This document shows positions 2,744-64,000 of a stretch of 64,000 bases of DNA, piece by piece; positions within the stretch are counted from its first letter, which is position 1, and every line of letters starts with the position of its first letter. Origin of the DNA: a virus; IMG/VR virus record IMGVR_UViG_3300035698_013362, positions 1 to 64,000 of that record; one strand, written 5' to 3'. The notes beneath the pieces were generated by a model that searched no databases, was not told the DNA's origin, and worked only from the letters and a program-made list of their open reading frames with translations. The position numbers and the translations under genes were made by a program.

Positions 2744-3398
2744 ATTTACAATTATTTAAATGATAACGAGTCATATTACACTGTCTTCCAATTTTAAAAC
2801 AATGAGGACAAACCACTTTATAAGATAAGTTATTCTTTCTTTTAATTAAGCTTCGGTTAATTGGATTTCCTAAAAATAATGCAAGTGGTTTATGTTTACA
2901 ATTATCAAAGTGGTATTTTTTAAGATTTGATATATCTATTTCTAATAGACAATGTGGACATTTCTTTATTTCACGTTTATTAGTATGATTAAATTTTCTA
3001 CCTTTAGATACCGCGATTAAATCCCCTGATGTATATCTAGGATCGGTATTTGATACTTGGAATAAATTATTATCTTTATCCCTAACATAAACCATACCTA
3101 ATAAATATCCATCACCACCTATGGCTAAATTATATGTATCAGATCTTTCTATATATTCTTCATTTACAATGTGCATTTCATCGATATATGCTTCATTTTC
3201 AGAATGATGAAATCTTAATATTTCTATAGCAAAATTTTCTATACCATATTTCTTAACGGCTTTATTTATAGCCACACCACTTCCATAATAACCATCATTA
3301 AGATCATTAGTTGAGTGTTTATCTGTATATTCTTTCTTATTAATTAAATTATATGTTCTATAAATTATATGAAATTTACCATCTATTCCTTTAAACAT
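2730..3398 (-). mobile_element. GIY-YIG (Seg-like) homing endonuclease, open frame but YIG motif altered
   Basis: IIYRTYNLINKKEYTDKHST, YYGSG, YNLAIGG, two CPHC...HxxNCK zinc ribbons; YxG reads YTD. Confidence 0.85.
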
Positions 3399-3447
3399 AT
3401 TATTACCTTTAATTGTTCTAATATTATTTATCTTATAGGAGACAAAA

Positions 3448-4584
3448 ATGACAGAAATAACAAAACCCCATTTAGGCGGACATGCTGGAATCGTCCACGA
3501 AGATATTGGAGCTCTTGAATGGGCTATCGCGAAGTATAATGTAAAATATGCAGTTGATATCGGTTGTGGTCCTGGACATATGGTTAAACATATGCTAGAT
3601 CGTGGTCTAGATGCACATGGTATTGAAGGTGATCCAGAGCTTAATTGGGGACGTCCTGAAAAATTCGTTCGTCATGATTATACTACAGGTGGATTTGCGG
3701 TAGGTCAGGATTGTGATCTTGGTTGGTGTGTTGAAGTGCTTGAACATATTGAAGAAGAATTCCTTGATAATGTTATGACTACATTCAAAGAATGTAAAGT
3801 TCTTATCGTTACGGCTGCTCCTCCTGGTACAGAAGCTTCACATCATCATGTGAATTGTAAAGATGCAGCGTATTGGACATTCCAATTTGCTAAGAATGGC
3901 TTCCGTCTTGATGATGCTGCTACAACTGAAATGCGCCGTTCAAGTACTATGACTCGTGAGTTCATGAAGAATACTGGTATGGTTTATGTTCGTGAAGAAG
4001 GGTACTGCGTTAATGATCTACCTGAATGGATTAAAATTGAACAGGGATTTACTGAAGAAGATATTGCTCCAGTTGAATCTGATGTTGAAATTGCTGAATC
4101 ATTTACAGACCAGCTTGTTGATGATGAAGACTTCGAAGTTGCTGCTGAAGTATTGCTTGCTAAACAGCAAACTCTCATTGATACTATTCAGAAATCTCTA
4201 ACATGTTCTAATATGCCTATCGATGAAATTCGTGCCTCACTTGCTGCAGTTTATAAAAGTGAAATGCCTGATTCCGAATTCAATCTTATCTTTGATGAAC
4301 AGATTAAATCATTTGAAGATTCCAAAGCTATTGTTGAACAAGTTGAAAAAGAAGCCGAACTTCCTATTGACATGATGAAGAAAGAGATTATCAAACATGC
4401 CGAAACTAATGATATTGATGAAGAATTAGCAGATATTCTTGTAGAAGAAATTATCAATGAACTAAAAGTAAAGCATAATCTTCCTGATAATAAGGATATT
4501 GTTTTTGATAGTGGTAATTATTACTTCATCACTGTAACTAAATCTGGTAAAGAACGTAAAGGCTCCAGGAAATTGGTAGAATAA
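3448..4584 (+). CDS. class I SAM-dependent methyltransferase with acidic C-terminal extension
   Basis: VDIGCGPG motif I, CVEVLEHI, HHVN. Confidence 0.85.
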   Translation: MTEITKPHLGGHAGIVHEDIGALEWAIAKYNVKYAVDIGCGPGHMVKHMLDRGLDAHGIEGDPELNWGRPEKFVRHDYTTGGFAVGQDCDLGWCVEVLEHIEEEFLDNVMTTFKECKVLIVTAAPPGTEASHHHVNCKDAAYWTFQFAKNGFRLDDAATTEMRRSSTMTREFMKNTGMVYVREEGYCVNDLPEWIKIEQGFTEEDIAPVESDVEIAESFTDQLVDDEDFEVAAEVLLAKQQTLIDTIQKSLTCSNMPIDEIRASLAAVYKSEMPDSEFNLIFDEQIKSFEDSKAIVEQVEKEAELPIDMMKKEIIKHAETNDIDEELADILVEEIINELKVKHNLPDNKDIVFDSGNYYFITVTKSGKERKGSRKLVE

Positions 4585-4585
4585 T

Positions 4586-4823
4586 ATGAAGTGTCCTTGG
4601 TATAAATTCCACAAATGGATTAAACTCAGACAACCTTCGTCTAGGTATATTAGGTGAAAAAGTTCATGGATATAGTTCTGGTCGGTTTATAAAATGTTCT
4701 GTTTGTGGAATTATACAGGAACATAAGCATGATTCCTAAGGTGGCTATTGGTCAACATTAAATGATCAAGAGGCCGCCGTGGTAAATTCTAAATTAGATA
4801 AAGACAATATAATAAGGAAATAA
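4586..4823 (+). pseudogene. decayed small zinc-finger protein
   Basis: MKCPWYKFHKW..., frameshift near 4645, then CSVC, TAA 4737-4739, open to TAA 4821-4823. Confidence 0.45.
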
Positions 4824-5639
4824 ATGGCCCAAGTATTATTTACCCAGAACTGCTTCTGTCCTGATGATAACCAATTCAACAGACTTAAGCGGTCTCTGTA
4901 TTCCCTTCAAAACTATGCTCGTCACTGTACCCCTAAGAATGTGTATCGATTTGTTCTTAGTGGGTGGGTACATGAAGATTATGAACAAGAACTCGAAACA
5001 TTCATGGAAGAGTGGGCTGATAATAATTTATTCTTCCAACAAGGTATTCATCTAGAATTAAATGAAACGAATGTAGGCAAAGGTAAAGTATGCAATAGCA
5101 TTATACCTAGATATTCTCATTCAGGATGGGATTATGTCTTTATGTTCGATAATGATATTATATTTAAAGAATGTCCTGAAGACATAGTTGATATTCTTAT
5201 CAAGCAGCAAAATGAAATGGATGCTATAGGGCCTTTAAAATATCCAGTTATAAGTTGCAACTTCGAGGAGCACCAGGTTCACAACCTAGGAGCAATGGAC
5301 CAAGGACATACAACTACAGATGGTAGACTCGTTAAATGCAGCACAGGACGATTTGGGTGTGTAGGTGGAGGATGCTGGTTAGTTAGGAGAGATCATTGGG
5401 ACGAGGTCGGAGGATACTGTGATGATACGATTTATGGCAAAGATGATGGTAAGTTTTATCTCGATACTATTATGTTGGGTAAGATGGTAGCACTTTCTAT
5501 GGAGGTATGGGTCATTCATCCTTCAGATGATGATCAAGCGTATAACCTCTTTAAAGCTGACACGAATGTGAATAGAGTCCGCAATATGAATTATGAAGAA
5601 CTTACTGTCGATAGTAATAACTTTTGGAAAAGTAGATGA
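4824..5639 (+). CDS. GT-A fold (GT2-like) glycosyltransferase
   Basis: NVGKG, FMFDND (DxD), GGCW, VGGY, YGKDD. Confidence 0.75.
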   Translation: MAQVLFTQNCFCPDDNQFNRLKRSLYSLQNYARHCTPKNVYRFVLSGWVHEDYEQELETFMEEWADNNLFFQQGIHLELNETNVGKGKVCNSIIPRYSHSGWDYVFMFDNDIIFKECPEDIVDILIKQQNEMDAIGPLKYPVISCNFEEHQVHNLGAMDQGHTTTDGRLVKCSTGRFGCVGGGCWLVRRDHWDEVGGYCDDTIYGKDDGKFYLDTIMLGKMVALSMEVWVIHPSDDDQAYNLFKADTNVNRVRNMNYEELTVDSNNFWKSR

Positions 5640-12781: not shown

Positions 12782-14647
12782 ATGAAAAATGATTTTAAAG
12801 TATTAGATGAAATATCCCACTGTTTAGCCCGCCCGAACATGTATATAGGATCTGTTGACTTAACCGAACGAACATCTTACTTATTTAAAGATAATAAATT
12901 TGAATATACAAATTATAAATTTGTTCCTGGCCTCATTAAGATTATTGATGAGATTATTGACAATGCCGTCGATGTATCTATTCGAACAGGCAAGTGTGAT
13001 ATAATAAAGGTAAAAGTAACTAAAAATGAAATTACTGTTCAAGACAATGGAACAGGAATCCCGGTCCAAAAGAATAAAGAGACAAAGACGTATTTACCAG
13101 AGCTTGCTTGGACACAAATGCGAGCTGGGACTTCGTTCGACGACACGGATAGGAAAACGATTGGTGCAAATGGACTTGGATCAGTAGCTTGTAATATCTT
13201 CAGTACTAAGTTCACTGGGATCAGTGATGATGGTAAGAAACGTTTTACTCTTAAATGTAAAAACAACCTATCTGAAATTGGATATGCTCTAGGCAAGAGT
13301 ACTGAACGAGGAGTAACAGTAAAGTTCCAACCAGACCTTCATAGATTCAATCTTTCGGAAATTGATGAGATACATATGATGCTTGTTCATCAGCGTTTGA
13401 TTAATCTAGCCGTAACGTTCCCTGAGATTGCCTTCTTCTTCAACAACAAAAGGATTACGATCAATGCAAAACAATTTATCAAGATGTTTAGTGATGGTAA
13501 AGAGATATCAGCCGAGTCCGATAACTGCATCATCGGCGTTCTGCCTAACGATTATGACGACTTTAAGTTTTACACATATGTTAATGGGATTGGAATGCCT
13601 AATGGCGGCAACCACATCGATTATCTTTCTCGTAGGATCGTGGATGGTGTCAAAGAAAAGCTCATTAAGAAGCACAAATCAATTAAGCCAGGAGACATCA
13701 AAAACAAAATACAAATTGTGGCTTTTATAAGGAACTTCCCTAATCCTAAATTTGATAGTCAGACTAAAGAGAAGCTTACTAATACTCAAGGCGAGTGCGG
13801 TAACTTCATTGATGTAGATATTGATAAGATGATTGCTCAGATCCTGCGCAATAAAGACATCATCGATCCTATTGTTGAAATGTTTAAACTCAAAGAAGAG
13901 CTTAAAGCTAAGAAAGAGCTTAAACAAGTAGGCAAGAAGAAAAAGATCAAGAGTGACAAATACATTCCATCGATTAAAGGAACTGAATATCTATTCCTTT
14001 GTGAAGGCCAGAGTGCCCTTGGTGGTATTAGCGCTATTCTAGGACGTGAAACGTTTGGGTACTATGCAATGAAAGGTGTCCCGTTGAACTCTTATGACTG
14101 TAAAATTCAAAAGTTGATCAATAACACTGAAATTAAAGAGATTGTAAATATCCTTGACCTCAGTTTAGTTAATGAAGCGAAGCCAGATGGTACATTAGTC
14201 CCTAAGCAAATGAATTACGATAACGTAGTTTTTGCTACAGACGCAGATGCTGATGGTCACCACATTAGCGGGTTGCTGATTGGCCTGTTTTATAAGTATG
14301 GTCGTAACCTTTTTGCCGAAAAAAGAATCTATCGTTTACGTACTCCTATTATGATTGTCAAGAAGGCCAAGAAGATCGTTAAGCACTTCTTCACTATTGA
14401 TGAATACAGAACATGGGAAGAGAAGCAAACTAATCTAGCTCAGTTTGAATTTAAGTATTCTAAAGGCCTTGGATCTTGGAAGAAAGAAGAGCTTAAATCA
14501 CTTATTGACAAATATGGCATCGATAACTTTCTAGAATACTTTACAATCGATGATGCAGATGTCATTGACCGATGGTTAGCTAATAATCGTGCTGATGATC
14601 GTAAAACCGAACTAAGTAACTACGAACTCGAAATCAATAAGGTATAA
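12782..14647 (+). CDS. 39: type II DNA topoisomerase large subunit (gp39+gp60 fused)
   Basis: RPNMYIGS, EIIDNAVD, DNGTGIP, GANGLG, CEGQSA, TDADADG, KGLGSW. Confidence 0.96.
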   Translation: MKNDFKVLDEISHCLARPNMYIGSVDLTERTSYLFKDNKFEYTNYKFVPGLIKIIDEIIDNAVDVSIRTGKCDIIKVKVTKNEITVQDNGTGIPVQKNKETKTYLPELAWTQMRAGTSFDDTDRKTIGANGLGSVACNIFSTKFTGISDDGKKRFTLKCKNNLSEIGYALGKSTERGVTVKFQPDLHRFNLSEIDEIHMMLVHQRLINLAVTFPEIAFFFNNKRITINAKQFIKMFSDGKEISAESDNCIIGVLPNDYDDFKFYTYVNGIGMPNGGNHIDYLSRRIVDGVKEKLIKKHKSIKPGDIKNKIQIVAFIRNFPNPKFDSQTKEKLTNTQGECGNFIDVDIDKMIAQILRNKDIIDPIVEMFKLKEELKAKKELKQVGKKKKIKSDKYIPSIKGTEYLFLCEGQSALGGISAILGRETFGYYAMKGVPLNSYDCKIQKLINNTEIKEIVNILDLSLVNEAKPDGTLVPKQMNYDNVVFATDADADGHHISGLLIGLFYKYGRNLFAEKRIYRLRTPIMIVKKAKKIVKHFFTIDEYRTWEEKQTNLAQFEFKYSKGLGSWKKEELKSLIDKYGIDNFLEYFTIDDADVIDRWLANNRADDRKTELSNYELEINKV

Positions 14648-51353: not shown

Positions 51354-51381
51354 ATGTTTATTTATTCAAATACTGTATGAA

Positions 51382-52499: not shown

Positions 52500-52958
52500 T
52501 TACTTGACAGGGATGGCTTTATCAATATCTAATTTAGAAAGCCCAGCTCTTTTCGCAATACGACCGATTGCTGATCCTAAAATTTTCGCAAATTTTATTG
52601 AAGTGGACTTTGTTCCCTTTGCAAGTTTCTTTGATAGTATCTTAGAACTACTTGGACCGAATTCATCTTCGATGTCCTTAGCGTCTCTAAGATTCTCATA
52701 TGCATACTTTCTGATTTCTAGAGGGTTTAAAGAGCCTTGATGCTCGGCTGAACCCCATGTAAAAATAGCTGTTAAATAATGAATAAGTTTAGGCTTGTTG
52801 CCCATGATAACGTCGGCAGCACGTAATACCATTCCACTGATTACTAGAGTAGCAATAGCTGTCCCTATAATCTCGTCGAGCTGTTCAATTTCTTTTAGAA
52901 TCTGTTCTTCTTTTTCACTGATTAGGCATTCATTATATGATTCGAAAATTGCGTCCAT
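52500..52958 (-). CDS. putative internal head protein (IFESY leader)
   Basis: MDAIFESY...QLDE, then hydrophobic helix. Confidence 0.65.
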   Translation of the reverse strand: MDAIFESYNECLISEKEEQILKEIEQLDEIIGTAIATLVISGMVLRAADVIMGNKPKLIHYLTAIFTWGSAEHQGSLNPLEIRKYAYENLRDAKDIEDEFGPSSSKILSKKLAKGTKSTSIKFAKILGSAIGRIAKRAGLSKLDIDKAIPVK

Positions 52959-52968
52959 TGTATTATCC

Positions 52969-53808
52969 TTAAATTATGCTTTTAACTTTGTCACCGATTT
53001 GGCGTATTGGGGTAAGGTATTTAGTATCCATTAAGCTCTTAGCACCTGAAACGAGAGGGTTCCCAAATACTTCCATTTTATTAAATTTGAAGCCAACTGA
53101 TCTATTGTCCATTGCTACTTCATGAGAAAGGTTTGGGGTATCACAGAAAACTGGATAAACCCCACTTAGTTTATATGTGTACTTAACATTGGCTTCATCT
53201 AAGAGTGCTCCTAGACCAAATAAGCCATCACTATTACTGTTCTCGTTATATACATGGATGAAGACGTTTGCACGCCTAAAAGGTACGTTCTGTCTGGAGT
53301 GTGTACTCATTACTTCTTCCATCCAAGGATGAAAATATCCTTCGATTGGAGATTCAACAGTACTAAGTAAATCTAAAGAGAATGAATCAGATTCAGGTTC
53401 GATAGTTCCCATACCTGGACAATTCCATGTACTGAAGCTATTTGATTCAGAGCTAATTGATACACTATTACCATCTGATGTTTTTAAATTCGGAAGATTA
53501 ATCCCTTTTACAAGGAATGGAATATCCTGTACTGGGTAACGAGAGATATAGTTTTTTTCAAGACCGATTTCTTTACTTATCAAAGAGAGTCCTGTTGTAA
53601 GAGCCGATCCAGCAGTTCCTAAACCAAATAGATCGGCTTTATCAAGAGCAGCATTACCATCCTTACCAGCCTTACCAAAAAGACTATCCCCACCTAAGCT
53701 ATTATTTGGGAATGAAAATGTAATAGAGAAAAACCGACCAGTTGATAAAGTAAACTTATCATCACCTGATCCGAATTTTTGATAGAATTGTGCTAGTTTA
53801 TTGCTCAT
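52969..53808 (-). CDS. tail tube-like/baseplate tube initiator (gp54-like)
   Basis: VKGINLP, YFHPWME, YKLSGVYPV, VGFKF; GATAAATA upstream. Confidence 0.65.
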   Translation of the reverse strand: MSNKLAQFYQKFGSGDDKFTLSTGRFFSITFSFPNNSLGGDSLFGKAGKDGNAALDKADLFGLGTAGSALTTGLSLISKEIGLEKNYISRYPVQDIPFLVKGINLPNLKTSDGNSVSISSESNSFSTWNCPGMGTIEPESDSFSLDLLSTVESPIEGYFHPWMEEVMSTHSRQNVPFRRANVFIHVYNENSNSDGLFGLGALLDEANVKYTYKLSGVYPVFCDTPNLSHEVAMDNRSVGFKFNKMEVFGNPLVSGAKSLMDTKYLTPIRQIGDKVKSII

Positions 53809-53817
53809 TTATGTTAT

Positions 53818-54948
53818 TTATCGCAATAACATCTCTATCTTACGCATTAACTCATAGTCTTTGATATTTGAAATTGTGTTGATTATATTTTCACGGAGCT
53901 CAGCATACTGCTCGTCCATCATAAGAGGGATTTTAATAACTTCATCACCTTCAGTAAATGATGTCAACTTGGAATATGAAGCACAGAATTTAGATCGAGC
54001 CCTTCCTTGTTCTCTTTCAATAATTCTGAAACAGTGTTCAAGGACAAGTGATTCTTTAATAGCATTAGTTTTGTGTATACAAAGTTCGTTTTTCTTATTT
54101 ATGTATGACACAACAAATTGAACTGAATTATCAAGGTTTGTAGTGAACTCAAGCAACTCATCTTTATAAGCAAGAAGGTCTTTAATATCTTTGAAACTAC
54201 AACGCTCTTTATATGTGTCACGGTCCATTCGATATAAAGTTGATAAGATCAATGCAGAGGTCTTAATCGAATTAGAGTTCCTGTACGCTTCTGAGACGGT
54301 ATGCCTTGATGATGATGATTTAACTGAGATAAGGTCATCACCGCTACCTAGGTCATATCCTGGGTATTCCATTGAATCAGAGTTTAAATTACCAGCTTCA
54401 TATAGATATTCAGCTATTCTTTCAATGAATCCAGCAAACTTCTGTTTATCTGAAATAGCTTCTTTGATTTGAGCATCAAGGAACAATTTAGCTTCTGAAT
54501 TGTTTGTGCCATCTTTGACTGCTTGAATTGATTCCTTTAGTTGGTCTTGGGATATAGCCGTTTCTATCATAGTGATTGCAATGTCACTGCCTTCATTATG
54601 AAGAGCGGTAAATACACCGAGCTCTTCCTTATCAAATTGAGAAATCTTAGCGAAGGCTTCGTTTACTGATTTCTTAAACCTACGCTTCTGTTGGTGGTAT
54701 GTATTAAATGGCACAGTTCCAGGCTTCACGTCTGAATAACTGATACCACCCGATGGATTTTCTTCGGTCTTGATTGAAAGCATTCTTTTCAAAACTCCTG
54801 TTAATAATTTATAGAATTCTTCAGAGCCATCTTGTACATCAGGATAATCGTCTGTGACTAATGATTTAGCCTTATTCCAAAGCCCTTCTACTTCAGCTTC
54901 GGTACGATTGGTGCGTTTAGCAAATGACTTGACTATGTTGTTTGGCAT
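53818..54948 (-). CDS. late protein with helical N-terminal module and putative PD-(D/E)XK-like domain
   Basis: MPNNIVKSFAK...LWNKAK; GFIE...NLN...YPGYDL...ISVKS. Confidence 0.6.
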   Translation of the reverse strand: MPNNIVKSFAKRTNRTEAEVEGLWNKAKSLVTDDYPDVQDGSEEFYKLLTGVLKRMLSIKTEENPSGGISYSDVKPGTVPFNTYHQQKRRFKKSVNEAFAKISQFDKEELGVFTALHNEGSDIAITMIETAISQDQLKESIQAVKDGTNNSEAKLFLDAQIKEAISDKQKFAGFIERIAEYLYEAGNLNSDSMEYPGYDLGSGDDLISVKSSSSRHTVSEAYRNSNSIKTSALILSTLYRMDRDTYKERCSFKDIKDLLAYKDELLEFTTNLDNSVQFVVSYINKKNELCIHKTNAIKESLVLEHCFRIIEREQGRARSKFCASYSKLTSFTEGDEVIKIPLMMDEQYAELRENIINTISNIKDYELMRKIEMLLR

Positions 54949-55259
54949 TATTTGATTAGAATATCGTTAGCGTCGGCTACTGTGTAGATCGAGTTGATTA
55001 AATCATCGACCTTTAGTGGATCTTCTTCTTGTTTGATCTTACCTAAAATCGTAGTTAGGGAATCAATCGTTGAGTCCTTCAAATCTTCCTTCTTTATGAA
55101 GGAATTTATGCGGGAGGAGATTTGTGCTTTAGCATGGTTAAACTCAATCTTATGATCTTGATAATTTGAGAATATATCGGTTAATCTAAGAGTGAATTTT
55201 GGACCTGCTTTTTCTCTAATTTCTTTTGTAACTTGTTCAGAAAGGTTAAATAGTCTCAT
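54948..55259 (-). CDS. small late protein
   Basis: AATAAATA upstream; MRLFNLSE leader. Confidence 0.65.
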   Translation of the reverse strand: MRLFNLSEQVTKEIREKAGPKFTLRLTDIFSNYQDHKIEFNHAKAQISSRINSFIKKEDLKDSTIDSLTTILGKIKQEEDPLKVDDLINSIYTVADANDILIK

Positions 55260-55267
55260 GCAACTAT

Positions 55268-55585
55268 TTATTGCATGCCCATTGTGATATAGTTTTCAGG
55301 GCGTGAATCGCCGTATGAATCTTTATATCCATTCAAGTATACAACAGCAACTTCGGATTTCTTCAATTTAGATTTGAACATCCATACACCTTCGATGTTA
55401 GGATCCATAGTAGGCTTTTGACCTTTGAATTCTTTATCATATATTGCTGGATCAAGCTCATCATGCATCATGGCAAGATCATGAAAGGCTTTGGCAGCGC
55501 CTTTGGCATTATCTTTATATTACTTTTTGGTTACATTAGCTGATTCAACTAAACATTGCTGATATGATTCGAAAATTGGGTCCAT
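55268..55585 (-). pseudogene. putative internal head protein with nonsense codon
   Basis: MDPIFESYQQCLVESANVTKK, TAA 55520-55522, then in frame with ORF 55268..55471. Confidence 0.7.
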
Positions 55586-55586
55586 A

Positions 55587-55880
55587 TTATCCTTTATTAA
55601 TTATGTTAATTATATCATTTTTAATTTTTATAAGTTCGTCGAATCCTTTCTTGGCATTCAGCAAGATTTTTATTGACTGTTTAAGCACAGTGTTATAGTC
55701 GTCTGCTACTTCCTCTGGAGTTTTAGGGCCAGAGCGAGATCCGATGCTGCGCTTACGGTGTTCAATAGTAGCTTCTAAGTTAAATATAACGCTTTCAAGA
55801 TCTGCTAATGGATCTGTCCGTTTTTCATCTAATTTCTTAGGCTCATTTGATTTCTGGTATGATTCGTAAATTGTGTCCAT
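55587..55880 (-). CDS. putative internal head protein (IYESY leader)
   Basis: MDTIYESY...KLDE. Confidence 0.65.
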   Translation of the reverse strand: MDTIYESYQKSNEPKKLDEKRTDPLADLESVIFNLEATIEHRKRSIGSRSGPKTPEEVADDYNTVLKQSIKILLNAKKGFDELIKIKNDIINIINKG

Positions 55881-55881
55881 A

Positions 55882-56625
55882 TTATACTCCTACTATGAAT
55901 GCCGGTGGCATCATATTTTGAATTTCTTCCATTACTGCTAATTCCTCTTCTTCACCTTTTTCACCAATACCTTCGTTGATATTAGCTCCAGCGAATAAAG
56001 GAACATTTTGGAACGTGCCACGCACAGCTCCTAAGATTTGTTTAACATAAGCAAGAGCAAGCTTCTTAACGAGGCGTTCTCCATAAATTTGATCTTCTGG
56101 ACGAACAACATAAACCCCAGTCACAACCCAGTTACTTTTTTCACCATCAGTTACAGGTTCAGGTAGAAGTTTAAGCATTTTGGTACGTTCATTGAAGTTC
56201 CAGCGATATCCTCCACCAAGCATAGTACGAGTCATTTTAAGACTCTGCTGAGCAATTTCATAATCAACCCACTGTCCACCTTGACTGCGAGTCATTGGGA
56301 ACGAACGGTTGTTCATCATTTGGTTAGGAACAGTAAATAGAGTGTTGACACTTCCTGCTACACCTTCATCAGATAAGCTAAAGATACCACTAACAGTATC
56401 GTCAAGTTTAACTCCAGTTCCAACCACATAATCGGTAAGCTCAACTCCTAGGTAATCCTCGTCGTAAGTAACGAATTCTGTAAATACCTCAAGAGCGTCG
56501 TCGATGCACTGCTTGATCATATCATCATCGACTTCTACTTGAATAAGAGGGTAAGCCAAACGACGTTTGATCCAAGAGACTAGATCGGCGTAATTTTGAA
56601 TTTGAAATTTTGCATAAGTTGCCAT
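55882..56625 (-). CDS. 13: neck protein gp13
   Basis: WIKRRLAYPLIQVEVDDDMIKQCIDDALE, VKKLALAYVK; CATAAATA upstream. Confidence 0.9.
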   Translation of the reverse strand: MATYAKFQIQNYADLVSWIKRRLAYPLIQVEVDDDMIKQCIDDALEVFTEFVTYDEDYLGVELTDYVVGTGVKLDDTVSGIFSLSDEGVAGSVNTLFTVPNQMMNNRSFPMTRSQGGQWVDYEIAQQSLKMTRTMLGGGYRWNFNERTKMLKLLPEPVTDGEKSNWVVTGVYVVRPEDQIYGERLVKKLALAYVKQILGAVRGTFQNVPLFAGANINEGIGEKGEEEELAVMEEIQNMMPPAFIVGV

Positions 56626-56826
56626 ATCATTATTTATGTCGGAGACCCTTTGAAACTTTTTGCCATGGTGTCATAAATTTTAAAAGAAAAGGTTCTATAA
56701 TAATTAAAAACAAAAATTCCTGTTTTAATTGAATGGGCTAAGCTAAAGTATATAAAGATTACCTGCCCTAATTTCCCAGATATTACACCTAACTATAAAC
56801 CACTTTCAATTATTCTATTATACTAT

Positions 56827-57237
56827 ATGAACAGAGATGATCTATTACCTGAAAGAATGAAGCTTCTTAATAACGAAGCTCTTGAAGATTTCCGTATTGA
56901 AGACTTTAATCTTAAAGAGAAAACGTTTGAGGCTCCTAACGTTAAGATCAAATGGATTCGTATTCTTGCTGAAGAGCAACGTCTCTTAGCAGTCCTTGAT
57001 GAGAAGACTGAAGAAGTTAAAGCAGCTATCATGAAAGAACGATTCAGCATGCAATCAGTTAATCAATTCAAAAAAGAACTTGAACTTGATAAAGCTCCTG
57101 AAATGGTTAAGATGAAGAAAGCTATTTCATCTCAGAGAGATATTATTCGTTTTGTTGAAGGCATCGTTAAAGTAGCTCATGGATATGGGTTCGATATTAA
57201 GAATTGTGTAGACATTGTAAAATTAGAGAACTCATAA
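56827..57237 (+). CDS. uvsY: recombination mediator UvsY
   Basis: EDFRIE..NL.E...P..KW, GFDIKN; upstream of UvsW. Confidence 0.8.
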   Translation: MNRDDLLPERMKLLNNEALEDFRIEDFNLKEKTFEAPNVKIKWIRILAEEQRLLAVLDEKTEEVKAAIMKERFSMQSVNQFKKELELDKAPEMVKMKKAISSQRDIIRFVEGIVKVAHGYGFDIKNCVDIVKLENS

Positions 57238-57467
57238 TGGATTTTTGGATAGATGGTGTATGTGAATGTGGGTATAAAGTAATAGAAGGCCCTAGTAAAG
57301 TCAAAGACTATGTGAATTTCTGTAGTAACGAATCATGTGAGCATCATGTTCTCCACGATATATTTGATATGGAAGAACTTGAATACTATAAACATGAATA
57401 TCCATATTCAGCTCTTCGTAAAGAAAATGAAAAGTTTAATGAAATATTTGACAAGTTATCACTGTGA
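57237..57467 (+). CDS. small zinc-binding hypothetical protein
   Basis: CECG...CSNESCEH; TAATG coupling. Confidence 0.6.
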   Translation: MDFWIDGVCECGYKVIEGPSKVKDYVNFCSNESCEHHVLHDIFDMEELEYYKHEYPYSALRKENEKFNEIFDKLSL

Positions 57468-58891
57468 TCAAAATAGTCTATAACAACAAAATCCGTGGCC
57501 AGATTAAACATGACAACCAAGCTCAATTCGATGAGCTTTATGGTAAGTTATGCTATCAACACACTAAATTTGGAGCTAATCGAACTCATGAAGTAGAAAC
57601 AGTGTGTCCTATTTCACCAGTAGGGTCTTTTTCTGCTGGCATTGCATTAGATTTGAAACGTCTTGAGCCCGATATAGAAATAGATAAGAAATTTACAGAC
57701 TTTCATTTTCCTTACATCTTTTTTAATCGACTTGATGGAAATTTAAAGCAACCGCTCAATAAACCGTGGAAGTATCGTTCTTATCAGGAAGATGCCATCA
57801 GGGAGGCTTCCTTGTTTGGCAGAGGCATAATCGACTCCCCGACGGGCAGTGGTAAATCCATCATAATGTATGGAATCATCACGAACTTAGTCCAAATGAG
57901 CGAAGGTCGTGTTCTTATTTTAGTTCCGAGTCCATCTCTTGTAACTCAGCTTGCTGGTGATTTCACTAAATATGGATTAGAAGACTTCGGCACATATACT
58001 TCAAGTACTCAAGCTTTCCCGGATGCCCAGGTCGTTATTACATCTAGGACTGTAATGAATAAGAAGGGGTTAGCTGCTTTACCTAAGATTTCACATCTCA
58101 TGATCGATGAAGTCCATAAGCTTATTCCTAAGAGTGCATATGAACGAGTTGTAAAAACTTGTGCTACCCCATCTATTTTTGGATTTACTGCTACAATGCC
58201 TGATGACCCTAAAGAAATGTGGTACATCAAAGGGATGGTAGGTCCAGTAATATTCAAAGAGCACACTTATGTTCTCCAGGAACAGAACTATCTTGCCAAA
58301 GTGAATATCGTATCATTCAAGTTCATCCATAAGAATAAACCTCTTTATATTGTAGAGCCAACCTATGATATGGGTGAACATCCAACTAAAATGTATTCAG
58401 ATGAATATCATTACTTGGAAGGTCGGCTTGATACAATTGAAACGATTGCTAATGTTGTTGCTCAGCTCAAAGGCAACACAATGATCTTATTTGATCACAC
58501 GTCGCACGGGCAGGCGTTATATAAAGCTATTAAAGGGAATAAGGTATTTGTTGATGGTAAGATATCAATGGATGAACGTGAAGATGTTAAAGCTGCTCTA
58601 GAGAAATCAAATGATCTGACTTTAGTTGCTCAGAGTACATGTTTTGGTACAGGTATTTCGATTAACAACATCCAGAACTTAATCATTTGTTCTCATAGTA
58701 AGCGTATGTCTAAGATCATTCAGCAAGTAGGTCGTTCACTTCGTAAAATGGTTGATGGTGATGAATATGTAATGTTCTTTGATTTCCATCATAACTTTAA
58801 ATATAGTGAACGACACTTCTATGAGCGTGTAAAGCTTTACAAGAAGTTCTATAATAAGTCATATGACAAACGTGTAGTAATAGAGATTTAA
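57464..58891 (+). CDS. uvsW: SF2 DNA helicase UvsW
   Basis: RSYQ, SPTGSGKS, DEVH, GFTAT, FGTGISI, QQVGRSLR. Confidence 0.95.
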   Translation: MIKIVYNNKIRGQIKHDNQAQFDELYGKLCYQHTKFGANRTHEVETVCPISPVGSFSAGIALDLKRLEPDIEIDKKFTDFHFPYIFFNRLDGNLKQPLNKPWKYRSYQEDAIREASLFGRGIIDSPTGSGKSIIMYGIITNLVQMSEGRVLILVPSPSLVTQLAGDFTKYGLEDFGTYTSSTQAFPDAQVVITSRTVMNKKGLAALPKISHLMIDEVHKLIPKSAYERVVKTCATPSIFGFTATMPDDPKEMWYIKGMVGPVIFKEHTYVLQEQNYLAKVNIVSFKFIHKNKPLYIVEPTYDMGEHPTKMYSDEYHYLEGRLDTIETIANVVAQLKGNTMILFDHTSHGQALYKAIKGNKVFVDGKISMDEREDVKAALEKSNDLTLVAQSTCFGTGISINNIQNLIICSHSKRMSKIIQQVGRSLRKMVDGDEYVMFFDFHHNFKYSERHFYERVKLYKKFYNKSYDKRVVIEI

Positions 58892-58909
58892 ACTCCTCCT
58901 CCTGATAAG

Positions 58910-58944
58910 AAAAAATGCAATCATTAATTTGATTGCATTTTTTT
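58910..58944 (+). terminator. rho-independent terminator
   Basis: AAAAAATGCAATCA-TTAATT-TGATTGCATTTTTTT. Confidence 0.8.
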
Positions 58945-58954
58945 CACTTTCCAT

Positions 58955-58989
58955 TATACAAACGAAATATCGTTGTGTATACTCTACTC
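58955..58989 (+). promoter_or_regulatory. early promoter
   Basis: TATACA-N17-TATACT-CTACTC. Confidence 0.82.
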
Positions 58990-59014
58990 CTAATCAGCAA
59001 CAAGGAGATACACA

Positions 59015-59711
59015 ATGCAGCTTGAATTTAAAACAATCGAAGAGATTAAATCAGCTTTCCTTGATTTCGATGTAGCAGAACAACCTACTTTTAAGAAATA
59101 TGATGACAACGGTACATATACTATATACCGCATGTGGTACAAGGAAGATACATATAACTGGCGCCGTGATTCATATAAAGTGAAAGATATGGTGTACTGG
59201 TTGCTTGTTTCAAACAAAACTAATGCCGTCTTCACTCATAAAGATTCATTAAAACGAGCACGGATCTGGCTCGGTGTCCCTACTAAAAAGACCGTAGTAA
59301 AGCGCGAGATACGTTGTAAAGATACTAAAGTATGGGATAATCAGATTTGTGTTGATGGAAGCGCCAGCGGCGACAAGGCATGGTGTGGCATACGTTCTGT
59401 AGCAAACATTACACATGTTACTTACGCTGAAGCTCGCGACCTCTGTAAAGCATATGGTTGGACCAAACGAGGAATGTTCAATCATCAGATTAAGAAACTC
59501 TTTAAAGAAGAGGGATACACCGTAGAAGAAAAAAACCGAATCAGTCAGAGAACATGCTAAAACAATTAAAATGTTCGAACGACATGGTTTTGAAGGTAAA
59601 TGGTTGATCCATGTGAACGGTCATTTCGTAAGCTCTGTAAACGGTGTTGTGACGGATTGGTCTGCTGAAAGAAACCTTCGAATCATCAACGCCTGGCAGA
59701 TTTCGAAATAA
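59015..59711 (+). pseudogene. early protein with C39-like peptidase domain, frameshifted at an A run near 59530
   Basis: WCGIRSVA (Cys) in ORF 59015..59560; GHFV and DW lie in the shifted frame ending TAA 59709-59711. Confidence 0.7.
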
Positions 59712-59723
59712 AAGTGAAATTAA

Positions 59724-59777
59724 CTATGTACAAATGATATCACGTTGAGTATACTCTTCTCATACTTAACAACAACT
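59724..59777 (+). repeat. 54-bp exact direct repeat carrying an early promoter, copy 2
   Basis: Identical to 44200..44253. Confidence 0.92.
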
Positions 59778-59804
59778 ACACTAATTAACTAACGGAGAAA
59801 CACA

Positions 59805-60560
59805 ATGAATGCATCAGTACTGAACGACAAGAACTGGATCAAAACCACTAACATGGATCAGCTTCGCGGAGTTGCTGCAAATTCAGAAGGTCCTCGCCAT
59901 TGCCCAGTAAACCACGGTGAAATGCTTCATCGCTTTAAAGAACGTGGTGAAGCCAAAGGAATCGTTGTTTCAGCCGAGCAGGGATTGCTCAGCCCGAACG
60001 GAAAACGTTTCATGTATGTAGCTGATGTTGAAGATCCTAACCTCGATTCAGATTACAAATTCACCGTCGGCTTCATTAACTTCAACGATCGCTCACGTTC
60101 CTTCACTGGAATTGCCGGTCAGCGTGTTATGATCTGTTCTAACCTTTGTGTAACAGGTATGCTTGAAGATGCGAGAACACGTCACAGCACATTCGTTGAT
60201 AGTCGTCTCGATGGTAAGATGGATACAATCTTCGATCGCTTTAAAGTGATCAGTGACGCTCAGAAGGTCAATGTCGAACGAATGAAAGCAACAACTCTTA
60301 ATGATGATTTGCTCGGTCGATTCCTCCTTGACTGCACTCGTACTGACTTCATGGGAGCGGCCAACACTCGTCGAATCATTACAGAGATCGATAAGCCCAC
60401 TCTGAATAATGTCGGTGATGATAGCCTATGGCGCTTGCACAATGCCGCTACCTACGTTCTTCGTGAAAACATTAAGAACCCAATTCTTGTTGCTGATTGT
60501 TCTAAGCTCATCAACGAAAAAGTCCTGAAGCTTGCTACAGGTATTTCTGAACTGATCTAA
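59805..60560 (+). CDS. DUF932-like early protein
   Basis: PVNH, NFNDRS, RVMICSNL, RH, SLWRLHNAAT. Confidence 0.75.
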   Translation: MNASVLNDKNWIKTTNMDQLRGVAANSEGPRHCPVNHGEMLHRFKERGEAKGIVVSAEQGLLSPNGKRFMYVADVEDPNLDSDYKFTVGFINFNDRSRSFTGIAGQRVMICSNLCVTGMLEDARTRHSTFVDSRLDGKMDTIFDRFKVISDAQKVNVERMKATTLNDDLLGRFLLDCTRTDFMGAANTRRIITEIDKPTLNNVGDDSLWRLHNAATYVLRENIKNPILVADCSKLINEKVLKLATGISELI

Positions 60561-60577
60561 CTTAACCATTAACCGAT

Positions 60578-60606
60578 AAAGCCTAGGAGCGATCCTAGGC
60601 TTTTTT
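60578..60606 (+). terminator. rho-independent terminator
   Basis: AAAGCCTAGGA-GCGA-TCCTAGGCTTTTTT. Confidence 0.9.
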
Positions 60607-60609
60607 GCG

Positions 60610-60617
60610 TATAAATA
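60610..60617 (+). promoter_or_regulatory. late promoter TATAAATA
   Basis: Exact consensus 5 nt before ATG 60623. Confidence 0.8.
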
Positions 60618-60622
60618 GAAGT

Positions 60623-61207
60623 ATGAACCCTATTTATGAAGCATATATCGGATGTACTGTTGAAAAGAAAGTCTCTGATGACTATTCAATCTATATTACA
60701 TGCACCCTATCCTCAGAGCTTCAGGATCGATGGAAGCTTTTAGTCCATAATCTTGACGAAGCAGAAACTGTTGAAACCGAGCCACATTGTACTTTCCTCT
60801 GGGCTAAGCTAGATGAAGAATTCAAAGAAGAAGAAATCTTCGACTTCCTTCAACCAATGCTTGAAGATATGGAATTCTACCTCATGCCACTTGGCTTCAA
60901 GATCTTTGAAGGTGTAAGTGATGGTGAACAGAACTGTTTAGTAGTTGGCCTCGATGCGCCTGGTGAAATAACCCAGCATCAGTTAGAGGTTAAGCGCAGA
61001 TTAAAAGAAGAAGGCATGGAGTTGATGCAGGAGTTCCCTGAGTGGAAACCTCATATGACCATAGCTTATTATCCAGTGGAAACAGAGATACGTTATGAGC
61101 AACCAAACAATGGAATGCTTAATACCCCAATCAAAACTAAAATTGACTTCATGAAGCTCAATAACGGCAAAGAACTTAAGTTCAATAAAGAGACTAAAGA
61201 AAAGTAA
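60623..61207 (+). CDS. 2H phosphoesterase (Acb1/gp57B/LigT-like) with IYEAY leader
   Basis: Two HxT motifs: PHCTF and WKPHMTIAY. Confidence 0.85.
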   Translation: MNPIYEAYIGCTVEKKVSDDYSIYITCTLSSELQDRWKLLVHNLDEAETVETEPHCTFLWAKLDEEFKEEEIFDFLQPMLEDMEFYLMPLGFKIFEGVSDGEQNCLVVGLDAPGEITQHQLEVKRRLKEEGMELMQEFPEWKPHMTIAYYPVETEIRYEQPNNGMLNTPIKTKIDFMKLNNGKELKFNKETKEK

Positions 61208-62253
61208 TGAGTACAAAACAAAATTACATACATTTTATGAATCCTGCAACTTTGGCCGCTCAACAGAAATTGATGGCTGGGTATTATCAACAAATGATCC
61301 AAATGTATGGAATATCTATTCAATATTTTAGAAAGAAATATGAATTTTTTGATCCGGATGGGTTACTTAATGCTGATGGTGATGTTAATTGGACATATGG
61401 GTATGATAATGCTTATGAGTTTGGTAATGTTGTCGATATGATTGGTTATTGCGAATTTGGTAATGATGCATTCATTTTCTCTATGATCGGCGCTGATTCT
61501 GAACAAGATGGAAAGATTTATTTTACCAAGAAGCAATTTGAACTAGACTTTATTAGTGCTGTCGGACGTATGACGACTGAAACCTTCGAAACAACCTTCA
61601 CAGTTGATGTTGAAGGATTCAATGGAACATATCTACATACTGAAAATTACGATCCATTTAGTATAACGTTTACCGATGATGTCACGTTTGCTTCATCTGG
61701 TGTTATAAATGAACCTATTACTCTAACGGTTGAAGATATTGAGTCTCATATTCGAAACGATATCTGTGGTAATAAAGCTTACATCTATAACTGGTTAGTT
61801 CAAGGTGATATGGCTGGAACTATTAGTGGTGTTCTTGATGAAGATGGAAATGGAACTCTTACAATTTCTGCTTCAGGTGATTTGACTTACAACCGTCCTG
61901 CTAATGATGAAGAATCTAACGGATGGGGAATTGCTCCTCAGAATGGTGACTTCATTCGTATTACTTATGGTGATGCTACAACAGAAGACTTTGCAATTAC
62001 GTCTATTACAGACCGAGATTTGAATAACGATGGTATTTCCCCTTTCATGGGTAAGCTTGTTTGGAAGTGTAACTTTACACGTAGAACATACAGCCATGAG
62101 TCAGTTCCATCTGGTGAAATTGCTAAAGAACAAATTGAAAATGATTACCTTAATCAGGTGATCGAAATTAACGATACTATTTCAGATGAAATTTATGATT
62201 ATGACAATGATGATGATGGGGAAAACTCTAGCGATATATATGGTGGTTTTTAG
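61207..62253 (+). CDS. 14: neck/head closure protein gp14
   Basis: QQKL...QMIQMYGISIQYF, FSMIG, PQNGDFI, YSHE, DIYGGF. Confidence 0.8.
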   Translation: MSTKQNYIHFMNPATLAAQQKLMAGYYQQMIQMYGISIQYFRKKYEFFDPDGLLNADGDVNWTYGYDNAYEFGNVVDMIGYCEFGNDAFIFSMIGADSEQDGKIYFTKKQFELDFISAVGRMTTETFETTFTVDVEGFNGTYLHTENYDPFSITFTDDVTFASSGVINEPITLTVEDIESHIRNDICGNKAYIYNWLVQGDMAGTISGVLDEDGNGTLTISASGDLTYNRPANDEESNGWGIAPQNGDFIRITYGDATTEDFAITSITDRDLNNDGISPFMGKLVWKCNFTRRTYSHESVPSGEIAKEQIENDYLNQVIEINDTISDEIYDYDNDDDGENSSDIYGGF

Positions 62254-62276
62254 TAATTAATTTTATAAATAAGTAT

Positions 62277-62651
62277 ATGAAAAAACATATACTATATAAA
62301 ACTACAAATCAAATTAATAATAAAATATATATTGGTATTCATTCAACTGAAAATCTTGATGATGGATATTTAGGTTCAGGTAAAGTTCTCTAATTTGCAT
62401 TAACAAAATATGGTAAAGAAAACTTCACTAGAGAAATATTAGAGGAATTTAATACACGAGAAGAAGCATCTAATGCAGAAGAAAAAATAGTTAATGGTAC
62501 CTTTATAAGACATAGAGACAATTATAACACTAATACAGGTGGTGGACATAATTGGTATGGAATGGTTTCTGTTATTTACGAAAAACCTATAACAAAAAAG
62601 AACATAATAGGGTATTATGACCCTGAAGATGAAGAAATAGAGTTCCTTTAA
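62277..62651 (+). pseudogene. GIY-YIG homing endonuclease pseudogene (not in ORF track)
   Basis: TATAAATA 62264-62271; ILYKTTNQINNKIYIGIHST...GYLGSGKVL, TAA 62391-62393, FALTKYGKENF...YNTNTGG. Confidence 0.88.
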
Positions 62652-62689
62652 ACGATAAATAAAATAAAGGAATATCTCAGGAGAACTAT

Positions 62690-63244
62690 ATGTCAGACCT
62701 TAATAAATTCAAAGATTTTTTAGTAAACACTGAAGAATTGTATGAATATCAATTCCAGATTAACGTGTTCACAAATGGTGGGGATTTTGATCCTAACCTT
62801 ACTGAACTTAAAAACATAGCTTTCTATGTGAATACAACTACGTTGCCAGGTAAAAGCCTTGAACGTGCTGATGTATTCCACTTTGGTATGAACTTCAAAA
62901 AGCCTTCTCGTATGATCTATACTGATACAATTTCAGTTGATATGCGTGTTGATGCCAATATGAATCTTCATAAAGCTATATCTAATTGGATGGATACTTT
63001 CTACAATATCGGTGAAGGTGGAGCAGGCGATCGTGCCCTTCCACAATATAATATCAAGATGTACATCTTGGATAAAAACCTTAACCCAGTTGAAGGATCT
63101 AAAACCATTATTCTATCAGGTGTATATCCATCAAACGTAGGTGATATCAACCTTACTCATGAAGGCTCTGCTATTGCAATTTGCCCTATTGAATTCACTT
63201 ACCAATATTGGTATTATGAAGAAGATGGTGATCCTTTAGGATAA
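62690..63244 (+). CDS. 19: tail tube protein gp19-like
   Basis: TTTLPG, AISNWMD, LSGVYPSNVGDINL, IEFTYQYW; GATAAATA and AGGAG upstream. Confidence 0.85.
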   Translation: MSDLNKFKDFLVNTEELYEYQFQINVFTNGGDFDPNLTELKNIAFYVNTTTLPGKSLERADVFHFGMNFKKPSRMIYTDTISVDMRVDANMNLHKAISNWMDTFYNIGEGGAGDRALPQYNIKMYILDKNLNPVEGSKTIILSGVYPSNVGDINLTHEGSAIAICPIEFTYQYWYYEEDGDPLG

Positions 63245-63525
63245 TGATTTTCTTTGCTCTATCCGAAACCATGGCTGCTACTTATTCTGTAAAGGATGAG
63301 ATTCGCAATCAAGGTAAAGCTTTAAAGATGTTAGCTCAAGGCAATAAAAAACTTGAGCTAGTATTGATAGATTTGTATGGAGCAGAATTCAGAAAGATCA
63401 TTAATCAGTTTAAAAAGAATTATAAATCGCTACCTACTCCTGATGATTTAATTTGGGTAGCTGGTGTACACACAGGGAAAGACCCTAAGAAAGTAGCTAA
63501 AGAATTGGCTAAAGGAACAAAGTAA
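63244..63525 (+). CDS. small late protein
   Basis: MIFFALSE leader, TAATG coupling. Confidence 0.6.
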   Translation: MIFFALSETMAATYSVKDEIRNQGKALKMLAQGNKKLELVLIDLYGAEFRKIINQFKKNYKSLPTPDDLIWVAGVHTGKDPKKVAKELAKGTK

Positions 63526-63827
63526 TGAAACCAACTATTGCAGAAGCATATCTAATGGCTGCTCAACCTATTGTTGAACAGAAAACTGAATCACTTGATG
63601 AATCCAAAGGTGGCATTATGCCTAACCTTAAGAAATGGGAATCAGCTGGCCGAAATTTAGCACCAAGTGAAAAAGCCGGATTGAAAGCTATTAAAGAAGC
63701 ATTATATGACTTTCATAGTGAAATTGAAGATTTAGCTGATACCCTTGGTGATGCTTTATCGCCAGGTCTTAAATATACTATTAAGAAAGACCTAAAGGCT
63801 TACGCCGAAACTTTAGCACGAGGATAA
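63525..63827 (+). CDS. putative internal head protein (IAEAY leader)
   Basis: MKPTIAEAY...SLDE. Confidence 0.65.
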   Translation: MKPTIAEAYLMAAQPIVEQKTESLDESKGGIMPNLKKWESAGRNLAPSEKAGLKAIKEALYDFHSEIEDLADTLGDALSPGLKYTIKKDLKAYAETLARG

Positions 63828-63829
63828 TT

Positions 63830-64000
63830 ATGAAACCTAATATTGCCGAATCTTATATGCGCTCAGCACATGTAATTAATGAATCTGCTGGCTCGGCAGG
63901 AACCCAACGTGGGTATGTAAAAACTACTCTTATGCGTTATGCTAAGAAAGTTGGGATTAGTCTTAACTTTGATTCTAAACTAGGGTATGATGTTTATACT
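63830..64000 (+). CDS. putative internal head protein (IAESY leader), runs off window
   Basis: MKPNIAESYMRSAHVINE; open to window end. Confidence 0.65.
   Translation, partial: MKPNIAESYMRSAHVINESAGSAGTQRGYVKTTLMRYAKKVGISLNFDSKLGYDVYT

Follow-up and report, generated by a model that had tools for sequence, protein, structure and literature searches.

A shared N-terminal peptide on nine otherwise unrelated, probably late proteins of an uncultured T4-like phage, a probable counterpart of the T4 capsid-targeting sequence

The prohead protease gp21 of bacteriophage T4 cleaves after the triplet L/I-x-E (PMC9026906). Positions 4 and 7 of the T4 leader are important for its targeting, positions 8 and 10 for its processing (PMC9026906), and in T-even phages the cargo is exchanged between related phages with the leader being kept (PMC3012670, PMC9026906, PMC12373910). 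As read from AF158101, the T4 leaders comprise 10-19 amino acids and have the sequences MKTYQEFIAE/A in IpII and IpIII and MKTFKEFTSTTTPVSTITE/A in IpI (slashes mark the cut). Here, we analyzed a stretch of 64,000 nucleotides (the window), corresponding to positions 1-64,000 of the 82,918-bp IMG/VR virus record IMGVR_UViG_3300035698_013362, and also scanned the whole contig. The subject is a short N-terminal peptide, M-[D/N/K]-x-(x)-I-[F/Y/A]-E-[S/A]-Y (the tag), with which otherwise unrelated proteins of this phage begin.

Two other systems are comparable in part. In encapsulins, a short terminal peptide suffices to load unrelated cargo enzymes into an HK97-fold shell, but these peptides are usually C-terminal, bind the shell directly, and are not cut off by a maturation protease, and neither DNA nor injection is involved. 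In the giant phages of the phiKZ type (phiKZ, 201phi2-1, and SPN3US), many head-internal proteins are cut after a Glu at a minimal x-x-E motif by gp21-related proteases; the propeptides have been proposed to target the prohead, and the diverged paralogues gp53 and gp54 of SPN3US have identical N-termini (PMC5694885, PMC9026906). The giant phages differ from the phage described here in that their propeptides are mostly longer than 100 residues, no single tag is used across unrelated proteins, the motif is S/A-x-E, and the tail and replication modules are not T4-like.

In a six-frame translation of the 82.9 kb, the core I[FYA]E[SA]Y matched nine times, and all nine matches sit two to four residues past an initiator Met. 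Of the tagged open reading frames (ORFs), which have lengths of 21-320 residues, six belong to the window and another three follow shortly after its end:

52500-52958 (-): tagged ORF of 152 aa, tag MDAIFESY, candidate cut sites ISE-15 and LDE-29
55587-55880 (-): tagged ORF of 97 aa, tag MDTIYESY, candidate cut site LDE-19
55520-55585 (-): tagged mini-ORF of 21 codons, tag MDPIFESY, sequence MDPIFESYQQCLVE/SANVTKK (slash at the candidate cut), terminated by TAA at 55520-55522
60623-61207 (+): tagged, predicted 2H phosphodiesterase of 194 aa, tag MNPIYEAY, triplet TVE-14
63525-63827 (+): tagged ORF of 100 aa, K-type tag MKPTIAEAY, candidate cut sites IVE-18 and LDE-26
63830-64000, continuing to contig position 64387 (+): tagged ORF of 185 aa, K-type tag MKPNIAESY, triplet INE-18, pI of the mature part 9.0
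Contig position 65671 (-): tagged ORF of 112 aa, from the six-frame scan
Contig position 68001 (+): tagged ORF of 320 aa, from the six-frame scan
Contig position 70854 (70854-71537) (+): tagged ORF of 227 aa, from the six-frame scan

The tag exists in two forms. Seven ORFs begin with M-[D/N]-x-I-[F/Y]-E-[S/A]-Y, and two adjacent ORFs begin with the K-type M-K-P-x-I-A-E-[A/S]-Y, which is one residue longer. A deliberately loose version of the pattern found no further ORF start on the whole contig, and none of the about 90 other contig ORFs, including all recognizable replication, early, and structural proteins, contains the motif. Past residue 23, there is no pairwise similarity among the tagged proteins (all E>0.07). 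As the codons vary synonymously among the nine tags, with TCA, TCT, or AGT for Ser and TAT or TAC for Tyr, the constraint acts on the peptide. The shared tag on unrelated proteins is thus real and far beyond chance. An earlier note on this DNA, which had been based on the window, had reported the six starting motifs and an end of similarity after the leader, and both descriptions hold; it had proposed a motif scan of the whole phage proteome, and the six-frame scan of the contig returned only ORF starts and added the three beyond the window. It had also named a motif equally common among early and replication proteins as an outcome that would speak against a targeting function, and this outcome is contradicted because the tag is absent from early, replication, and recognized structural proteins. 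A second shared start from the same source, MxxFxLSE (55259 and 63244), was dropped: the pair exists, but among 92 ORFs, two pairs agree at four of the seven positions, compared to 1.5 expected from shuffled sequences, which is not above chance.

Behind the tag, all nine ORFs contain a hydrophobic-x-Glu triplet that ends at residue 14-22 when residues 12-23 are scanned, and the Glu-ending triplets that had been listed before were all present. For an enrichment test, we considered only tagged ORFs of at least 70 aa (n=8) in comparison to the 92 other ORFs. In this comparison, [LI]xE occurred at residues 12-23 in seven of the eight tagged ORFs and in 19 of the 92 others (Fisher p=2.7e-4), and with a wider set of hydrophobic residues before x-Glu, the counts were 8/8 and 31/92 (Fisher p=3.3e-4). 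The spacer between tag and triplet is variable and comprises 3-11 residues. By its sequence, the leader ends in a gp21-type cleavage motif with a putative cleavage site after the Glu.

Orthologues of metagenomic origin from large protein collections revealed how this leader is conserved. We obtained four orthologue sequences for the 112-aa family (71-82% identity), three for the 320-aa family (32-34% identity), and nine for the 2H family (56-78% identity, all tagged); three of the orthologues (P0002, P0003, and P0132) are encoded on contigs of about 156 and 186 kb. In all three families, the mean pairwise identity of residues 1-8 was 73-81%, that of the spacer (residues 9-13) was 33-40%, and the Glu of the leader, at the putative cut site, was invariant. 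For the remaining protein of the 320-aa family, the mean pairwise identity was 31%. A conserved tag, a variable spacer, and a conserved Glu form the pattern that is expected of a bipartite signal under its own constraint. As a side aspect, the 381-aa protein P0008 is a distant homologue of the 320-aa cargo with a different N-terminal extension of about 146 residues, which contains two I-S-E triplets near its start (..NKIISE.. and ..NIISE..) and may represent another lineage's leader on this cargo family.

The comparison with a close relative, L006, whose large terminase TerL is 79% identical to that of the contig, indicated that the cargo can be exchanged behind the leader. When the DNA past the sheath gene was aligned, the terminator position, TTTTCTATAAATAA (containing TATAAATA), the ribosome-binding site, and the tag through E-A-K were shared, and directly after E-A-K the similarity fell to random level. 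The cargoes at this site are unrelated, and the two tagged proteins match over the first 30 residues only. L006 has no counterparts of the two tagged genes that flank TerL in the contig. Judged from these sequences, the cargo genes vary between relatives while the leader stays. A tag DNA pattern identified one further relative in IMG/VR, L001, with two tagged ORFs, and one other match that was due to chance; a second tag DNA pattern gave no match in IMG/VR. In JGI metagenomes, the tag DNA pattern matched 38 times; 37 of these matches were discarded, being either due to chance or internal to eukaryotic Atg8-like sequences. The one genuine match is a 1.2-kb metagenome contig (L058) with three tandem tagged ORFs. 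Searches for IMG/VR relatives by the neck protein, the 112-aa family, and the 320-aa family yielded nothing, and neither did a search for the 112-aa family in GTDB genomes. With a tag that is conserved at 32-34% overall identity and cargo that is swapped or absent in relatives, the earlier view of a modular tag is supported, in the form of a signal at the protein level on unrelated late accessory proteins. We note aside that the large terminase gene of L006 (3043-4780 (+)) is split into the overlapping frames 3043-3930 and 3593-4780, a frameshift that is either real or an assembly error.

One of the tagged genes is interrupted. The 21-codon ORF at 55585 is in frame with a 67-aa ORF (55268-55471) across the single TAA at 55520-55522:

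55268-55519 (-): in-frame continuation of the interrupted tagged gene, containing the 67-aa ORF

According to the sequence, both ORFs together constitute one stop-interrupted tagged gene of about 105 codons (55265-55585 (-)). The TAA was without variants in the contigs of three salt-lake metagenome runs. The distal 67-aa ORF has its own ATG, and its product would be untagged. A comparable T4 case are alt.-1 and alt.-2, annotated as a duplicated alt start with a stop codon.

The phage that carries these genes is an uncultured, T4-like phage from salt lakes, and near-identical DNA is present in several 2018 salt-lake metagenome runs. The T4-like nature is evident from replication and transcription genes (a gp55-like late sigma factor, a gp46-like SbcC protein, a clamp loader, UvsY, and a UvsW-like helicase) as well as from virion genes (baseplate hub and wedge, neck head-tail adaptor, sheath, tube, a gp15-like sheath stabilizer, and TerL). 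Among cultured phages, no close DNA relatives were found, and the best identity of the neck protein was only 25-28%, to Vibrio and Stenotrophomonas phages. The completeness of the contig was estimated by CheckV to be about 30%.

By their setting, the tagged genes appear to belong to late transcription units. According to the earlier note, all tagged ORFs of the window lie in units with xATAAATA late promoters. Such a motif is indeed found within 40 nt of the own start in four of the nine tagged ORFs (5-35 nt upstream), whereas the other five are only distal members of units that are headed by xATAAATA before a neck, tube-like, or unassigned late gene. The 97-aa ORF, for example, starts 2 nt past the stop of the neck (head-tail adaptor) gene. 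The motifs relevant for the tagged genes in the window are as follows:

60610-60617 (+): late-promoter-like motif TATAAATA, 5 nt before the ATG of the tagged 2H gene
62654-62661 (+): late-promoter-like motif GATAAATA, heading the tube-like gene (62690-63244), a 93-aa ORF, and two tagged ORFs
56631-56638 (-): motif CATAAATA, 5 nt before the neck gene (55882-56625), heading the unit with the tagged ORFs at 55880 and 55585
53815-53822 (-): motif GATAAATA, before the ORF 52969-53808, heading the unit that ends with the tagged ORF at 52958

No RNA runs that hold sequence of this contig were listed among public runs. In many genes, xATAAATA is positioned exactly 5 nt before the ATG (window positions 51366, 55272, 56638, 60610, and 6607; contig positions 70841, 76117, and 78548). 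This spacing leaves no room for a Shine-Dalgarno sequence and suggests very short-leadered or leaderless late mRNAs.

With respect to the cargo, the mature parts of six of the eight longer tagged proteins are basic, with pI values of 9.0-9.7 (9.4 in the case of the 152-aa ORF). Pfam and PHROG searches with the eight longer cargoes gave no match for seven of them, and the ESM Atlas returned nothing usable for the 185-aa protein. The 194-aa protein matches PHROG 755 and has two HxT motifs (HCT and HMT) that are invariant in the nine orthologues. Its Pfam scores remained below the cut-off of 27 bits, with 24.6 for 2_5_RNA_ligase2 and 18 for Acb1 (PF23474). An AlphaFold2 model calculated with the orthologues had a pLDDT of 80 and a 2H phosphoesterase fold, and the Foldseek hits with a probability of 1.0 included a phage phosphodiesterase, LigT, and Acb1, the latter with a TM of up to 0.70 by target. 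The nearest solved structures were a Burkholderia phage phosphodiesterase, a poxvirus cGAMP phosphodiesterase, phage Acb1, and LigT; a sequence profile search of the PDB with the 2H family gave nothing significant. Based on the model, the 194-aa cargo is a 2H phosphodiesterase with a LigT/Acb1-like fold. An assignment to Acb1 was rejected in view of 18 bits at a curated cut-off of 27, and we keep the protein as a 2H phosphodiesterase without a subfamily. AlphaFold2 placed residues 1-19 outside of the domain as a helix with linker, both of low confidence, with the tag forming the short helix, and the first strand of the domain begins at residue 22.

More distant 2H homologues (24-41% identity) in IMG/VR phages mostly have a short N-terminal extension that ends with L/I/V-x-E just before the domain; the loci L072, L074, L092, and L095 are among those with such short leaders. 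In L072, three non-2H ORFs share a leader of the type ..[YF]S.FI[TN]E. In L074, three further non-2H ORFs begin with MK.IKTFE.FI.E, a leader type that nearly equals the T4 leader, and a fourth has a looser leader that ends with ..EFVSE. In L092, one non-2H ORF shares the leader of the 2H protein. As these leaders are common to 2H and non-2H ORFs, the same enzyme class apparently receives the tag of its lineage, whichever this is, and in total the 2H class carries its own phage's tag in at least four separate lineages. We regard these lineage-matched leaders as the best in-silico argument that MDPI[FY]E[SA]Y could be the functional equivalent of a capsid-targeting sequence, and their distribution suggests that 2H enzymes may recur as cargo behind tags of this kind. 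In five incomplete records of the distant phages that have tagged 2H genes, a search with PF03420 found no match. It is tempting, albeit doubtful, to extend this to a lineage-specific addressing code of head tags in T4-like and jumbo phages, with the recurrent 2H cargo, which would degrade cyclic nucleotides or 2'-5' oligonucleotides, being pre-packaged, injected together with the DNA, and blunting host immune signaling before phage genes are expressed.

In T4, acb1 adjoins ipI (PMC9117128). The 194-aa protein resembles T4 Acb1 (gp57B) in its two HxT motifs and its predicted 2H fold, but differs from it in the sub-cut-off Pfam scores, and T4 Acb1 has not been reported to be packaged. We observed that T4 Acb1 (gene 57B; 13953-14411 (-) in L064) starts with MMEFKDFSTG, which resembles the leader MKTFKEFTST of its neighbor IpI. 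Residues 1-8 of T4 Acb1 are outside of the Pfam Acb1 domain (9-150), and no L/I-x-E follows directly; this start may be a relic leader or chance.

Taking these data together, we consider it fairly probable, at about 60%, that the tag is this lineage's counterpart of the T4 capsid-targeting sequence and that the tagged proteins are loaded into the head and trimmed by a gp21-type protease. The tagged proteins would be made late, with their transcription being driven by the gp55-type sigma factor. The amphipathic N-terminal helix, with the hydrophobic I4, F/Y5, and Y8 and the acidic E6, would bind to the scaffold core of the assembling prohead, the protein would become enclosed, and a prohead protease of the T4 gp21 type would cleave behind the Glu that lies at about residue 14-22. 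The trimmed proteins, most of which are basic, would then remain together with the DNA in the head and would probably be delivered into the host along with it. The cargoes would constitute an exchangeable accessory repertoire, with the predicted 2H phosphodiesterase as one member. In this scheme, core binding, enclosure, cleavage, retention in the virion, and injection are proposed by analogy with T4.

The analogy is close in several respects. In T4 and other T-even phages, as in the phage described here, a short leader is the sole shared part of unrelated, non-essential, often basic small proteins; the leaders have a conserved head, a variable spacer, and a terminal hydrophobic-x-E (I-x-E in T4); the leader lengths are similar (10-19 aa in T4, 14-22 aa here); the genes are apparently expressed late and are scattered outside of the head module; and cargo is exchanged between relatives with retention of the leader. 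The earlier note had proposed a new kind of system, which we cannot support, as one leader on diverse internal proteins is the textbook situation in T-even phages (PMC3012670, PMC9026906, PMC12373910). The principle is thus already established, and it is the sequence form of the peptide that is new. There are further differences to T4: at least nine cargoes are encoded on 30% of one genome, compared to three in T4; the P3 position can also be V, T, M, or F; the cargo includes a predicted 2H phosphodiesterase and two proteins with hydrophobic segments; and packaging and cleavage have been demonstrated in T4, whereas they are predicted here from the sequence.

Several points weigh against this assignment. 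Pfam searches for the prohead protease (PF03420, Peptidase_S77) and Gp23 found no prohead protease, scaffold, portal, or major capsid gene on the contig. As these head genes are missing from a contig that covers about 30% of the genome, the link of the tag to the head rests on the analogy. The Peptidase_S77 search was validated on T4, where it found gp21, and it also detected the protease in all three distant TerL relatives that were searched (contigs of 67-216 kb), and for this reason we expect the protease to be encoded on the remaining 70% or so of the genome. The peptide itself deviates from the T4 leader, as MD(P)I[FY]E[SA]Y and MKT[YF]xEF share only M1, E6, and the hydrophobic/aromatic pattern. 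P3 of the putative site is not always L or I; it is Thr in the 2H protein of the window and mostly Phe in its orthologues, and V or M also occur in some tagged proteins. In one 2H orthologue, Glu6 of the tag is replaced by Lys. Furthermore, no homologue of the 320-aa and 2H cargo proteins was detected by tblastn in cultured phages. Finally, two cargoes have transmembrane-like segments, which is unusual, though not unknown, for head-internal proteins: the 152-aa protein at residues ~30-48 and the 227-aa protein (contig 70854-71537 (+)) at residues ~196-214, the latter with a second hydrophobic stretch at ~95-125 as judged by eye. If packaged, these two proteins might act at the host membrane on injection.

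It is in principle conceivable that the tag does load the prohead and is cut, but that the proteins act, in the manner of T4 gp67 and gp68, as accessory components of the core or scaffold that end up degraded or expelled, and not as injected effectors. Core proteins are, besides the internal proteins, processed at L/I-x-E in T4 (PMC9026906, PMC5694885), a second hydrophobic-x-Glu follows soon after the first in several tagged ORFs (LDE-29 in the 152-aa and LDE-26 in the 100-aa protein), and most tagged proteins lack a recognizable enzymatic domain. However, close relatives can lack the tagged genes or have others in their place, which would not be expected of essential core proteins. In addition, one tagged gene encodes a predicted intact 2H phosphodiesterase, and another one contains an interrupting stop that several runs have in common. 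These points make such a role unlikely. The position of the tagged genes among neck, tube, sheath, baseplate-hub, and terminase genes and not among head genes, as well as the variable P3, could alternatively indicate a docking peptide for some other late structure or factor, for example the neck, tail, baseplate, an assembly chaperone, or the cell membrane, with a Glu triplet that is no cleavage site. This position loses weight in light of the T4 ip genes, which are likewise scattered outside of the head module, and the hydrophobic-x-Glu is enriched, with all members of the three orthologue families having the Glu at the same distance. With the similarity boundary of the cassette swap directly after this Glu, and with equivalent cargo in other lineages bearing T4-like leaders, we regard docking elsewhere as unlikely.

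Two further possibilities were considered. The block conserved between the contig and L006 spans promoter, ribosome-binding site, and tag together, and in several late genes the distance from xATAAATA to the ATG is only 5 nt, so the common start might be a feature of nucleic acids or translation, either a homology patch for the recombination of gene cassettes behind late promoters or a choice of first codons that promotes initiation on very short-leadered late mRNAs, with a peptide that has no role. We consider this very improbable, because the nine tags differ by synonymous codons, including TCA and AGT for Ser, the upstream contexts vary (5-nt spacing, a leader of 21-35 nt, or coupling within an operon), most late genes do not have the motif, and the amino-acid motif persists in orthologues of 32-34% identity. 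The tag could also be thought of as the leader by which a modifying enzyme, or a protease other than that of the head, recognizes its substrates, as in RiPP-like systems in which one maturase serves many tagged substrates. However, no candidate enzyme adjoins any of the nine dispersed genes, the contig has no radical-SAM gene, and the substrates have 97-320 aa and include a predicted folded enzyme; we give this idea hardly any credence.

With regard to the proposed binding of the tag to the scaffold core, we noticed a resemblance in the T-even scaffold protein gp22 (T4 gene 22, 4118-4927 (+) in L063; homologues P0009-P0128). Near its N-terminus, the T-even gp22 has the conserved sequences L[DN]S[IV]FE[ST]V and TVFEATV, and these motifs (DSIFESV and TVFEATV), which are situated between gp21 cut sites, resemble the tag core I[FY]E[SA]Y. 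The motif is absent from a divergent scaffold (G002/L065). The tags could mimic a self-contact of the scaffold, or the resemblance could be chance.

Two other observations concern the contig in general. Besides the gp55-like sigma factor, an extra sigma-70-family protein (PHROG 351) is encoded at contig positions 72916-73734 (+) (9916-10734 in L005), and it is kept in L006. Between a 348-aa late gene and the tube-like gene, a 38-codon ORF (62277-62393 (+)) behind TATAAATA has a GIY-YIG-like start (..KIYIGIHSTENLDDGYLGSGKVL). It resembles a truncated homing-endonuclease gene, and full-length look-alikes are found at 2730-3398 (-) and at contig positions 75115-76104 (-).

The most interesting question that arises from this analysis is whether 2H phosphodiesterases are pre-packaged anti-signaling enzymes. 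The presence of a 2H phosphodiesterase among the tagged proteins suggests that ready-made enzymes directed at nucleotide immune signals may be delivered, and no report of such a delivery of Acb1-type enzymes was found in the literature examined. The T4 proteins Ip1-3 turned out to have anti-defense functions (PMC12373910), and in the same way the nine cargoes, which mostly have no known homologues, are candidates for such functions. If the tag loads heads, it would allow the injected proteins of an uncultured and deeply divergent T4-like lineage to be listed simply from their sequence, and it would mean that the T4 internal-protein strategy, one address peptide with swappable cargoes, survives with a completely different peptide.

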